Position numbers and translations under genes: made by a program. A stretch of 60,405 nucleotides of DNA, the filler included, from Candidatus Fermentibacterota bacterium (lineage in GTDB: Bacteria; JAFGKV01): assembly GCA_016928395.1 (NCBI GenBank). It is 5 parts of 5 records of this genome, joined end to end, with 100 filler letters (N's around TTAATTAATTAA, not from the genome) between each part and the next. Parts side by side here need not be neighbours in the genome. Positions count along the whole stretch, not along the records: positions 7,747 to 22,065 come from JAFGKV010000041.1; 4 more parts are not named here. One strand, given 5' to 3'. Shown here piece after piece: positions 8,588-11,462 of the stretch; the stretch's first letter is position 1; each line of letters begins with the position of its first letter. Below the pieces are notes generated by a model. It did no database searches, was not told where the DNA came from, and saw only the letters and a list, made by a program, of their open reading frames with translations.

Positions 8588-8642
8588 GGATAGCGCACGC
8601 GTTTCAGATGCGGCGGGTGCCAGCTGCAACCGCTGGCGAGCC
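8588..8642 (-). mobile_element. Degenerate attC-like recombination site
   Basis: Minus strand GGCTCGC-CAGCG-GTTGCAGCTG...GCATCTGAAAC-GCGTGC-GCTATCC: hairpin arms retained, AAC and GTT cores mutated. Confidence 0.5.
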
Positions 8643-9488
8643 TGCTTGCGCCATTCCTGCGCGATCAATCTGACCGGCGCGCCCAAACCACATCGAGCGA
8701 GTTGATGCGATCATCAGCACCACGAACACCCACAGCACGATCTCATCGGTCAGGGTCGGCTGTCCTGGGAAGACGTAGTTCTTTGACGCGATTGAGGCAT
8801 GGTAGAGGATGGCGGGAACGAGGCTGCCGCCGGAACCGTAGTAGATCCAGGTGAACACGAAGGCGGTCGCAACAAGACCCATAACCCGAATCGCCATGGG
8901 ACCGAACCCCAGGCTGAGGCCCTGGCCTATCCACGCCGGTATGTGCCATAGGCCCCAGAACACGCCGAGCACGAGGGTCCCCACCAGCGCGCCGCGCCAT
9001 GCCTCGAGCCGAGGCAACGCGAAGCCCCGCCAGCCGATCTCCTCACCCACGGCGTTCGGAAGAGTGAACACCAGGGCCACGGGAATCATGTACGCCGCAG
9101 CCGGGCCTAGGATCACTCGCAGCGGCATCGGCCCGAGCTCGTAGGACCGACCCAGAACGCGGTCGATGCCCAGAGACAGACACCACCGCGCAGGCTCGAA
9201 CAAAAGTGCTACGAGGTACCACTGCCAGCGAACACGCCATCTGCCGAGCTTGCTGAACAGAGCGCCCAGGCCTGGCCCGCGCGACGAGAGAATCGTGAGC
9301 AGAATGGCCGCAAGGCCGGGAGACCATACCGTGAGCGCGTTCGCTGGCGACCTGGGCGACACGGCTGACTCGGCGAGTCCGAGCCGGTACCTTGCCTGTG
9401 GTATCCAGATCGTCCAGGCAATCAGAGTCAGCAGAAAGAACATCACAAGCTCAATCGCGCGCCTCGCTCGCGTGGCGTCAGCTTCCAT
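8604..9488 (-). CDS. CPBP family (CAAX/Abi) intramembrane metalloprotease
   Basis: GEEIGWRGFALP, WGLWH and AILYHA motifs; GGAGG RBS before ATG 9488. Confidence 0.88.
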   Translation of the reverse strand: MEADATRARRAIELVMFFLLTLIAWTIWIPQARYRLGLAESAVSPRSPANALTVWSPGLAAILLTILSSRGPGLGALFSKLGRWRVRWQWYLVALLFEPARWCLSLGIDRVLGRSYELGPMPLRVILGPAAAYMIPVALVFTLPNAVGEEIGWRGFALPRLEAWRGALVGTLVLGVFWGLWHIPAWIGQGLSLGFGPMAIRVMGLVATAFVFTWIYYGSGGSLVPAILYHASIASKNYVFPGQPTLTDEIVLWVFVVLMIASTRSMWFGRAGQIDRAGMAQAGSPAVAAGTRRI

Positions 9489-9494
9489 TGCCAC

Positions 9495-9602
9495 CTCCAA
9501 TACCCTGAGCGTAGCCAGCCAAAAGGCCGGGCCGCAAGACATCAAGACAGAAAATGATGCGAGCTCCGGCCTTCTTGGTCTTCGTTCATGCGATTGCTCG
9601 CA
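9495..9602 (-). mobile_element. Degenerate attC-like site
   Basis: Minus strand GCGAGC-AATCG-CATGAAC...CCAAGAAGGCCGG...CCGGCCTTTTGG...GGCTACGC-TCAGGGT-ATTGGAG: inverted arms with mutated cores, just ahead of the next gene start. Confidence 0.5.
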
Positions 9603-9618
9603 TTCCCGCAATTCTGGC

Positions 9619-9759
9619 TTACTTCTTGGGCTTCTCCTTAATTCCTTTCTTTCCTCCAGTCATCGGACCTTGACCAGGGCCTGTGCCCTTGCCCTTACCT
9701 TTGCCATGACCGTCTTTCGGTCCCTGACCTTTTGGTCCAGTTCCATCTTTGTTTGGCAT
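9619..9759 (-). CDS. 46-aa Gly/Lys-rich small protein (DUF5320-like MPxxDGTGPxGxGP N-terminus)
   Basis: Translated by hand: MPNKDGTGPKGQGPKDGHGKGKGKGTGPGQGPMTGGKKGIKEKPKK; strong AGGAGGTG RBS; below the ORF-track cutoff. Confidence 0.75.
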   Translation of the reverse strand: MPNKDGTGPKGQGPKDGHGKGKGKGTGPGQGPMTGGKKGIKEKPKK

Positions 9760-9798
9760 ATTAATCACCTCCTTCCCGTTGGTTAGCGCTAAGGAGCT

Positions 9799-9834
9799 CT
9801 ACTTGGTCGTTGCACGCATCCGCCTTGTAGGCTG
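9799..9834 (-). mobile_element. Remnant left half of an attC-like site after gpmA
   Basis: Minus strand CAGCCTAC-AAGGCGGATGC...; CAGCCTAC matches the complement of GTTCGCTG (upstream of gpmA) at 6 of 8 positions. Confidence 0.4.
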
Positions 9835-9845
9835 ATCCTACCTTT

Positions 9846-10592
9846 CTATTGAGCTTTACCCTGGTCCGCTACAGCTTTCGTTGCCTGATCTACATCTTCT
9901 GTATTTCCCAAATAGTAATGTTTGATAGGTCGCAACTCCTTATCCAACTCATATACCAACGGAATTCCGGTAGGAATATTGAGTGCGACAATGTCTTCGT
10001 CTGAAACATTGTCAAGATACTTCACCAGTGCCCGTAGGCTGTTGCCGTGAGCTACGATGATGGCTCTCTTTCCCGCTTTGACGGCAGGTGCAATAGATCC
10101 GTTCCAATAGAGTAAGAAGCGCTCGACTGTGTCTCTAAGACACTCTGTGAGTGGCAAGTCGCGATCATCCAATTCCCGATACCGTGGATCATGGGCCGGA
10201 TATCGTTCGTCCGTTCTCTCCAGGGCCGGGGGCTTGATATCATAGCTTCTGCGCCAAAGGAGTACCTGATCCTCCCCAAAGCGCGTTGCGGTCTCCGCCT
10301 TGTTCAGGCCTTGCAGAGCCCCATAGTGCCGCTCATTCAGCCGCCACGAACGCTCGACAGGAATCCACATTTGGTCAAGTTCATCCAGCACGATCCAAAG
10401 TGTGCGTATGGCGCGCTTCAGCACTGATGTATAGGCAACATCGAATTGGTAGCCTTCAGATCTGAGCGTTTTGCCGGCTTCTCGAGCTTCGATCCTGCCA
10501 TGGTCAGAAAGATCGACATCCGACCAGCCAGAAAAGCGGTTTTCCTTATTCCACAAGCTTTCACCGTGCCGCAATAGGGTCAGTTTCATCAT
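9846..10592 (-). CDS. gpmA: 2,3-bisphosphoglycerate-dependent phosphoglycerate mutase
   Basis: [50 protein letters not shown]. Confidence 0.95.
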
Positions 10593-10618
10593 CCCATCAC
10601 CCTGTGTTCTTCCTTGGC

Positions 10619-10703
10619 AGCGAACGATAAGGATCACGCGCGAGGGATGGCGCAGAGCGAAGCGGCACGCTATTCCTCGTCGCCGTCGATGGCTCTGTTG
10701 GGA
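10619..10703 (-). mobile_element. attC-like recombination site (near intact, 85 bp)
   Basis: Minus strand TCCCAAC-AGAGC-CATCGAC-GGCGACGAGGAATAGCG...CGCCATCCCTCGCGC-GTGATC-CTTATC-GTTCGCT: R'', L'', L' and R' arrangement with extrahelical bases. Confidence 0.72.
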
Positions 10704-11245
10704 TCGATCCATTTCACGACCCCGTTCTTTGTTACACTTCTCTCAACTGTGATCGGCAGATCAGAGCTCTTGATCACCGCCTCATAGATCGCGTTGCCCA
10801 TCTTTGATCCGCTATCTCCAGGGTGGATCGTGATGGAATGGTATTCTGACAACGTGTCCTCGAAAACTTCGTAATATCCAATTTGACCAATCCATCCGCC
10901 AAGACGACAATAAGTCCAGAGTCTGACCTGGGTTCCGATCTTCTCAAGGGAAACAGCCATGGTATGGGCGAAGAATTCCCCATACTTGCGATACTTTCCT
11001 GTGGCATTGCCAAGGTATAGAGTAAATTGGCCGCCGGCGTTGCCAAATGATCTCATGTCACAGGACAAGGCCATGTCTTGAATACCGTCCGAATTGAAAT
11101 CGGCAAGCATTCTGAAACGTTCACCGCTGTGGATATCGTCCTTCGCAACGGCTCTGATCGATGGATCGTCACTCCATTCAAATCCCGTGGCGATCACCGC
11201 CGCCAACCCAATGATTGTTGTGGCAAAACCTCTCTTCATTCTCAT
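10670..11245 (-). CDS. Secreted or membrane-anchored hypothetical protein (gene-cassette ORF)
   Basis: N-terminal hydrophobic stretch; one [11 protein letters not shown]a-binding-like motif; stop lies inside the attC; the frame is open upstream to ATG 11323. Confidence 0.65.
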
Positions 11246-11375
11246 GATCCCAACGGGGCCGCGGGTGAGCCGCATAACACGTATACAGCACTGTAACCTG
11301 GTTGAGGTTTTCCTTTGTAGCATCTATCATTCACCTCCTCCTTGACAAACCGGAGCCGCGTCTTGTGCAGATCCG

Positions 11376-11462
11376 AATAACACTCACGTTCAGCCTCACA
11401 GCGCATCCATCGGGCTCGCCAAGAGAAGGAGTGGTCAGTCTTCAGTTGTCGGTAGTCAGGTG
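11376..11462 (-). mobile_element. Highly degenerate attC-like site
   Basis: Minus strand ACCTGAC...AACTGAAGACTGAC...GGCTGAACGTGAGT-GTTATTC resembles attC ends. Confidence 0.3.

Follow-up and report, generated by a model that had tools for sequence, protein, structure and literature searches.

A probable integrase-less cluster of integron cassettes, short and partly decayed, in a Candidatus Fermentibacterota genome

We analyzed a stretch of 60,405 nucleotides (hereafter, the window) of the metagenome-assembled genome (MAG) of a Candidatus Fermentibacterota bacterium (GCA_016928395.1), focusing on a row of minus-strand genes in which an original prediction had seen an integrase-less array of integron cassettes with decaying recombination cores, spread over positions 8588-11462. 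According to our results, positions 9497-11254, about half of this region, probably form a short, partly decayed cluster of two minus-strand cassette units without an integron integrase gene (intI), that is, a small cluster of attC sites lacking an integron integrase (CALIN), a class said to go back to Cury et al. 2016. Unit 1 carries a gene for an exported protein (hyp6), while unit 2 carries gpmA together with a small gene (Table 1). The prediction is unproven for the three other genes of the row, encoding a CPBP protease, a DsrE-like protein and a methyltransferase, for which the window gave no cassette evidence. In the passages of two reports that deal with them (bioRxiv 10.1101/2022.09.11.507474; PMC9024848), CALINs are defined as clusters of attC sites lacking an integron integrase and are thought to be degraded integrons or, if small, the result of integrase-mediated insertions at genomic sites other than att sites.

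Results

The hyp6 unit and its attC site

The hyp6 unit is a textbook cassette, as it combines a relative in an intI-linked array, a homologous attC site and a seven-nucleotide match between the R'' box of this site and the 5' end of the unit. The gene belongs to no Pfam family, matches NF047539 weakly, and has atlas matches that are hypothetical or FG-GAP-like clusters. Its single relative in the genome collection (72% amino acid identity) is located in a Desulfosarcinaceae MAG (G004, locus L267), where 76% nucleotide identity was found over positions 10633-11146, with similarity extending 37 nucleotides (nt) beyond the hyp6 stop codon. Locus L267 contains nine co-oriented attC sites matched on the plus strand by R2, one of the surrogate attC covariance models described below (E values from 1e-5 to 0.83), and each of these sites comes after a small plus-strand open reading frame (ORF), as far as ORFs are listed. 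The array starts 0.5 kb from a divergently oriented integron integrase gene (TIGR02249, 284.5 + 103.9 bits in two adjacent frames), and the hyp6 homologue is a cassette of this intI-linked array.

The segment 10619-10703 aligns with positions 5498-5578 of L267, which is the attC site following the hyp6 homologue and whose bottom strand folds better than shuffled sequences (z of -5.41; relatives of the window site reached -5.41, -2.45 and -2.55). A search of 401 Desulfobacteria-class genomes gave matches in 81, and four further copies, in as many genomes (G214, G277, G029 and G185; L289-L292), match the attC part alone, with 81-90% identity over 51-73 nt. Within the resulting six-copy family, 91.2% of the cells are paired in the 19-pair helix-2 and 7 pairs have changed on both sides, a covariation score that was reached by none of 500 shuffles; overall, 81.5% of the cells are paired, compared to 31-41% when the partners are slid. 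The window copy keeps the R'' box (TCCCAAC), the L'' box, the inner stems and an in-register GTT, and in our reading of the alignment the unpaired positions of the family sit at matching places in it. It has kept 15 of the 19 stem pairs (4 lost), compared to 18-19 in four relatives, and its L' box (GTGATCC) mismatches its own L'' box, while fitting that of another family member. On the strength of homology and covariation, 10619-10703 is a genuine attC-derived sequence that has partly decayed. The earlier description of this site as near intact was therefore right about its origin and overstated its condition, given the lost pairs and the missing fold signal.

The junctions of the unit agree with this assignment. 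At its 5' end, G|TTGGGA (11254-11248) is the exact complement of the R'' box TCCCAAC (10703-10697), with 7 of 7 positions matching when the G is counted, and the same holds in L267. Indeed, the same CGTTGGGAT precedes the hyp6 homologue in L267, where it is the R' box of the upstream attC site (4868-4927). At the other end, similarity to the attC family stops at the GTT of the R' box (10625), and similarity to the gpmA locus of another Desulfobacteria MAG (G065) starts there.

The integrase gene of G004 (G004:C2:242825-243756; L273, L269, L277), being matched in two adjacent frames, is either frameshifted or affected by an assembly error.

The gpmA unit and its closing hairpin

Unit 2 starts with gpmA, which encodes a 2,3-bisphosphoglycerate-dependent phosphoglycerate mutase (NF010713, 430.9 bits, above the cut-off) with 90% amino acid identity to a Desulfatiglandales MAG. 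The complete block, which runs from gpmA through a 77-nt spacer and the small ORF to the hairpin, is 85% identical to this MAG over 1121 nt and shares 83% nucleotide identity with G065 and G057, in the case of G065 over 10625-9509, with the G of GTTCGC as the first position; for the 3' part of the block, 85% identity to a further genome (G109) was found. Judging from these similarities of 83-85% to Desulfobacteria MAGs, gpmA and the small gene travel as a single unit. Moreover, attC-model matches on the strand of the unit surround it in G065 (1067-1130, 5195-5255 and 6146-6201) and come after it in G109 (3920-3974 and 4650-4707).

This finding contradicts the idea that gpmA and the small gene are two cassettes parted by the left half of an attC site at 9799-9834. 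These positions are part of a conserved leader of about 75 nt, which also precedes small-gene copies without an upstream gpmA (L282, L283 and L296) and whose fold z values are -0.65/-1.69. GTTCGCC was also considered as the 5' boundary of the small-gene module and was rejected, as the conserved leader reaches further upstream.

The hairpin at 9495-9602 is the only one among the five attC-like sites originally proposed that outfolds its shuffles (z of -4.09/-2.99, two values being calculated per site). Its relatives reach z values of -3.4 to -5.9, with AACGC pairing with GCGTT at the base of the hairpin. In an alignment of nine copies, the sequences agree until GAGCG|TT and then diverge into six downstream contexts. 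The window copy reads GTA (9503-9501) where its relatives have GTT, in line with the altered core noted earlier, and carries GCGAGC upstream of it in place of the GCGAAC conserved in the other eight copies. The complement between the R'' box and the 5' end of the unit extends, in this case, just to AAC/GTT. We consider 9497-9591 likely to be an attC-like site.

Some further observations were made on the genes of this unit. In the Desulfatiglandales MAG, the intact gpmA is preceded, at a distance of 5.3 kb, by a 45-amino acid fragment (L001, 547-681) that resembles the C-terminal part of GpmA with 53% identity. Copies of the small gene with 74-90% amino acid identity are present in many Desulfobacteria genomes, several per genome, and the small gene, its leader of about 75 nt and a hairpin of about 110 nt recur there as a multi-copy unit (L282-L286, L296 and L297), either before or after gpmA. 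Short contigs covering the small-gene unit reach summed depths of hundreds in sediment metagenomes.

Searches for attC sites by folding, motifs and covariance models

Folding was scored as a z value against shuffled sequences, and four of five true attC sites of the Thiodictyon pTs485 integron, used as a positive control, had z values of -3.5 to -6.2. A strict RYYYAAC...GTTRRRY scan of 7747-12000 gave 0 candidates; it was dropped as a poor test, as it recovers just 4 of the 9 attC sites of three class-1 arrays. In a constrained-energy scan of 544 AAC...GTT pairs, no enrichment was observed in the region, with 5 of 55 pairs reaching -0.16 kcal/mol/nt there versus 127 of 489 elsewhere in the window. 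In place of the model of IntegronFinder, we used three surrogate covariance models: R1, trained on 13 true attC sites, with which five Thiodictyon array sites outside the training set were recovered (E <= 8e-5); R2, iterated with sites from a Desulfatiglandales genome; and R3, based on Desulfobacterota sites alone. These models have a low sensitivity for the attC family of unit 1, as an intact relative of 10619-10703 scores just 13.7 bits.

The original prediction had staked itself on a covariance-model match at 10619-10703 and on the gene order not being vertically inherited among relatives. None of the surrogate models gave a significant match, and no searched genome had the same gene order. 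Taken together, fold statistics, core-motif scans and surrogate models missed both sites, and comparison with relatives alone revealed them. Two other proposed sites did not stand up: 8588-8642 has z values of -0.95/-0.50, no model match and no AAC...GTT pair in the right order, and 11376-11462 has z values of +1.31/+0.47 and a sole match of 4.9 bits on the wrong strand. Of the five sites, the attC reading was thus retained for 10619-10703 and 9495-9602, owing to their relatives, and abandoned for the remaining three.

As for other features, Rfam gave 0 matches, both for 5000-15000 at E <= 10 and for the whole window at gathering thresholds, ARAGORN called 0 genes, and a scan for consensus terminators and promoters made no call at the junctions of the row.

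Search for an integron integrase

No Phage_integrase ORF was found among the six large ORFs scanned on the contig beyond the cassette region, and the ORFs of the 740-bp spacer upstream of unit 1 had no family and no Pfam-detectable integrase remnant. On the other side, the contig ends 1.75 kb past the last attC. The only tyrosine recombinase seen in the window is a 308-amino acid XerD (22420-23346), which is encoded on a different contig and is no integron integrase, with 335.1 bits for TIGR02225 (cut-off 329.6) and 129 bits for TIGR02249 (cut-off 265). Where a complete integron would have intI, attI and a Pc at its first cassette, there are 256 nt of unassigned DNA, two repeats of about 120 nt and a glycosyltransferase-like gene.

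Comparison with known systems

With two co-oriented attC-derived sites 1.1 kb apart on the minus strand, each of them closing a unit, and no intI nearby, the element resembles a CALIN, for which at least two co-oriented attC sites less than 4 kb apart are expected. Also as in CALINs, its cassettes have relatives in integrase-linked arrays: hyp6 occurs beside intI in G004, and the gpmA/small-gene unit among attC matches in G065 and G109. Unlike in a CALIN, both sites are degraded to below detection by the surrogate models, such that standard software might miss the element, one unit has two ORFs, and co-oriented genes without attC adjoin the cluster. The chromosomal integron arrays of Desulfobacteria MAGs (G004, G001 and G109) share with the window the attC family, the hyp6 cassette (72% amino acid identity) and the gpmA/small-gene unit (83-85% nucleotide identity); however, these arrays possess intI (TIGR02249 above the cut-off) and well-folding attC sites, and their backbone composition differs.

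According to those parts of Loot et al. (bioRxiv 10.1101/2022.09.11.507474) that concern them, single attC sites lacking an integrase (SALINs) and attC x attG insertions, in which attG is a genomic site, also have features in common with the window, namely a small integrase-less cluster in which one junction is a bare G|TT, while the opposite end has a complete attC. Likewise, the cluster is closely followed by a gene that looks resident and has a ribosome-binding site of its own. It differs from them, as they are described there, in comprising two units and not one attC, and in a right junction that reads GTA and not GWT; furthermore, what the window presents is an end state only.

Alternative explanations

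Several observations speak against a cassette origin. R1 had four matches in the window (E 2-7.4), none of them within 7747-12000, and R3 had three (E 1.4-5.8), none at any proposed site. The best window match of R2 was indeed 10619-10703 on the minus strand, yet at a non-significant 9.6 bits (E of 6 for the window and 0.42 for 4.25 kb), and this segment folds no better than its shuffles (z of +0.98/+0.78). For unit 2, the candidate attC upstream of gpmA in G065 has no fold signal (z of -0.58/-0.70), the 5' edge of similarity to the gpmA loci varies among relatives (10625, 10616 and 10601), and a clear G|TT is missing from the 5' edge of the small-gene module. R2 scores for the hairpin are low (16 bits in L295 and 11.9 bits in L296) and come from the opposite strand; the gene downstream of the hairpin is syntenic in five genomes, in which the R''-like box reads GAGC; and the hairpin, being made of an A-run, a GC stem and a T-run, can be read as a bidirectional terminator. 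Finally, attC traces are absent between the CPBP, DsrE and methyltransferase genes of the window.

Could the region then be an ordinary patch of horizontally acquired genes, whose hairpins act as terminators and whose AAC/GTT boxes arose by chance? The lack of a significant covariance-model match and of an enrichment of AAC...GTT candidates would fit such a patch, as would the gpmA locus of the Desulfatiglandales MAG, which has no attC match and is 565 kb away from the nearest intI. The hairpin at 9495-9602 also resembles a Rho-independent bidirectional terminator in its GC-rich stem, its flanking A-run and T-run and its position directly after a stop codon. Unlike in a terminator, however, the loop measures about 29 nt, the A-run pairs with the T-run, an extra AACGC/GCGTT pair closes the structure, and the divergence of hairpin copies from different contexts sets in exactly behind G|TT. 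We accordingly revised a reading of this hairpin as a plain terminator, given the context breakpoints at G|TT, the AACGC/GCGTT pairing and the behavior of its relatives. An ordinary gene patch also leaves unexplained why 10633-10703 is homologous to a covarying hairpin family in an intI-linked array, why the R'' box and the 5' end of unit 1 match at 7 of 7 positions, why the homology partner switches at one GTT, and why six contexts diverge at G|TT. It is strongly disfavored by these homology, junction and breakpoint tests, and we regard it as very unlikely. Even more improbable is a chimeric mosaic that the metagenome assembler built from different organisms. The record does consist of metagenome-derived contigs, the GC content switches four times in 4 kb, and the small-gene and gpmA parts are common to many other organisms of these samples, as seen from loose ends and a high summed depth. 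Nevertheless, unitigs of run X2, which stems from an independent study, bridge both the hyp6-gpmA junction (10547-10762, 7 differences) and the hairpin-CPBP junction (9402-9552, 1 difference), that is, at 97-99% identity. Positions 7747-8509 are also covered, without any difference, by an independent Logan contig of run X1; 56% of this run was compared, and large parts of the stretch had no contig there. In addition, the switches are not inside conserved sequence; they occur between genes, at junctions where ORFs and ribosome-binding sites are intact.

Within the cassette explanation, which we prefer, a variant differs in the origin of the cluster alone: an integrase acting in trans could have inserted a circular two-unit molecule 14 nt ahead of a resident CPBP gene, at a non-att genomic site (attG or secondary site), so that the cluster would at no time have belonged to an integron of this genome. 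We consider this origin possible, albeit less likely than not. It would account for a left junction at which G|TT lacks an upstream hairpin, the 60 nt in question (11248-11307) having no fold signal (z of 0.17/0.00), for a right junction at which a complete attC-like site is followed by other DNA, as expected of a product of attC and a genomic site, and for the absence of intI and attI on the 5' side of the array. The CPBP gene is GC-rich like the backbone, and Loot et al. describe, in the part of their report on this reaction (bioRxiv 10.1101/2022.09.11.507474), efficient insertion at GWT sites, by which small CALINs and SALINs may arise. On the other hand, the right junction reads G|TA and not GWT, and the upstream DNA of two CPBP relatives is unlike 11255-11520, with chance matches only. 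Moreover, the low-GC DsrE and methyltransferase genes that follow CPBP, of which DsrE is cassette-borne elsewhere, better suit the erosion of a longer array.

Remaining genes of the row, contig context and flanking repeats

The window consists of separate MAG contigs joined by four N44-TTAATTAATTAA-N44 linkers, which are six-frame stop spacers. Since these linkers separate contigs, genes across any of them are no neighbors, and the left flank of the gene row, which is located at the left end of the contig 7747-22065, is not genuine. The six ORFs of the row, all on the minus strand between 7747 and 11245, have GC contents of 0.49 (methyltransferase), 0.42 (DsrE), 0.64 (CPBP), 0.49 (small ORF), 0.51 (gpmA) and 0.50 (hyp6), compared to 0.615 on average for the window. 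The row of co-oriented, low-GC genes with its mosaic composition, one of the first things noticed in this sequence, is genuine. Beyond position 11245, 740 bp without a credible gene are followed by glycosyltransferase-like genes, the first of which (11986-12993) has its best relatives in KSB1, Cloacimonadota, Calditrichota and Eisenbacteria MAGs at up to 70% amino acid identity. No close relative of the host was present in the collections searched, the best backbone matches being at 70% amino acid identity; the contig backbone is GC-rich, and its genes resemble, in their best matches, those of FCB-group candidate phyla.

The CPBP, DsrE and methyltransferase genes continue the co-oriented row, and nothing in the window shows that they are cassettes. 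The CPBP gene, which starts 14 nt after the junction of unit 2, is 76-77% identical at the amino acid level and 78-80% at the nucleotide level to two MAGs, one of them of the Krumholzibacteriota, with no shared neighbors and no attC-model match at either locus. A second CPBP-type protein of this genome is encoded on a neighboring contig of the window (3086-5263) as a 725-amino acid fusion of an ABC-2 permease and a CPBP/Rce1-like domain. For DsrE, all 80 kept metagenome relatives have 64-81% amino acid identity and are mostly found on low-GC contigs. In 2 of these 80 loci, L230 (31.6 bits) and L220 (18.8 bits), an attC-model match directly follows the DsrE stop codon, which places the family, as far as these matches indicate, in the integron cassette pool elsewhere. 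No attC was found around the window DsrE, where the gaps of 32-33 nt are too short and none overlaps the coding ends. A methyltransferase-like match was present in 11 of the 80 loci and directly followed DsrE in four of them (L189, L194, L202 and L256).

Two direct repeats of about 120 nt sit between the cassette block and the glycosyltransferase-like gene of the backbone. A Logan contig of run X1 extends 235 nt beyond 7747 and there resembles 11858-11923 in the same orientation, with 8 differences in 66 positions, such that a third copy lies just to the left of 7747 and the whole low-GC block is bracketed by repeat copies. The repeats have no fold signal and no Rfam family, and no other copies were found in the window, in the loci fetched and then compared, or in metagenome contigs (pattern search, 0 matches). 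That the entire 4-kb low-GC block, cassettes included, is a mobile or recombination-delimited unit bounded by these non-hairpin repeats seems doubtful to us; if it were true, the host lineage would be stockpiling foreign cassettes at a repeat-marked accretion site without an integron integrase.

Table 1. Coordinates of the cassette units, neighboring genes, repeats and linkers
Feature	Positions	Strand	Remarks
Unit 1, classical cassette: short leader, hyp6 ORF and own attC	11253-10625	-	
5' junction of cassette 1, G|TTGGGAT	11247-11254	-	TTGGGA complements own R'' TCCCAAC
hyp6, ORF of cassette 1	10670-11245	-	191-amino acid exported protein, FG-GAP/XAC2610-like hints
attC of the hyp6 cassette	10619-10703	-	R'' TCCCAAC 10703-10697; R' GTTCGCT 10625-10619; crossover G|TT 10625|10624
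Unit 2: gpmA, small DUF5320-like ORF and long attC-like hairpin	10624-9503	-	
gpmA with leader, first ORF of unit 2	9846-10624 (gpmA 9846-10592)	-	leader starts at TT of G|TTCGCT
Conserved 5' leader (about 75 nt) of the small-gene module	9769-9845	-	contains 9799-9834
DUF5320-like ORF, second ORF of unit 2	9619-9768	-	49 amino acids, Gly/Lys-rich; PF17253 23.4 bits, below cut-off 27
Likely attC-like hairpin closing unit 2	9497-9591	-	R''-like GCATGAAC 9591-9584; R' position G|TA 9503|9502
CPBP/Rce1-like intramembrane protease	8604-9488	-	PF02517; GC 0.64
DsrE/TusD-like sulfur-relay protein	8212-8571	-	PF02635; GC 0.42
S-adenosylmethionine-dependent methyltransferase	7747-8178	-	PF08241; 3' end cut by contig end
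attC-model matches near DsrE homologues	L230 2596-2667 and 3659-3729; L220 8361-8454		
Direct repeat copy 1, about 120 nt	11511-11630		256 nt upstream of cassette 1
Direct repeat copy 2	11805-11923		72-75% identity to copy 1
Linkers between contigs	7647-7746, 22066-22165, 52010-52109, 57777-57876		N44-TTAATTAATTAA-N44

Discussion

Under the explanation that we favor, both units would have been drawn from the cassette pool of Desulfobacteria-type integrons, in which the integron integrase would move them through a cut that separates G from TT in the folded bottom strand of attC. An integrase would also have placed the units at their present position, be it as part of an older array or as a two-unit circle inserted at a non-att genomic site. 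The changes in both sites, namely the mismatched L boxes of unit 1 and the GTA and GCGAGC of unit 2, should hinder recombination, and the cassette genes are therefore probably fixed in place and immobile by now.

As an element, the cluster is an ordinary member of the described CALIN class. Given that its sites were missed by the fold, motif and covariance tests, surveys of uncultured phyla for CALINs and SALINs may count too few degraded clusters. The case also illustrates how gpmA, normally a housekeeping gene of glycolysis, would have ended up in a cassette-type unit. More generally, it would be a concrete example of integron cassettes crossing between distant lineages, from a Desulfobacteria-type pool to a GC-rich candidate-phylum genome, and then becoming fixed there as their attC sites erode.

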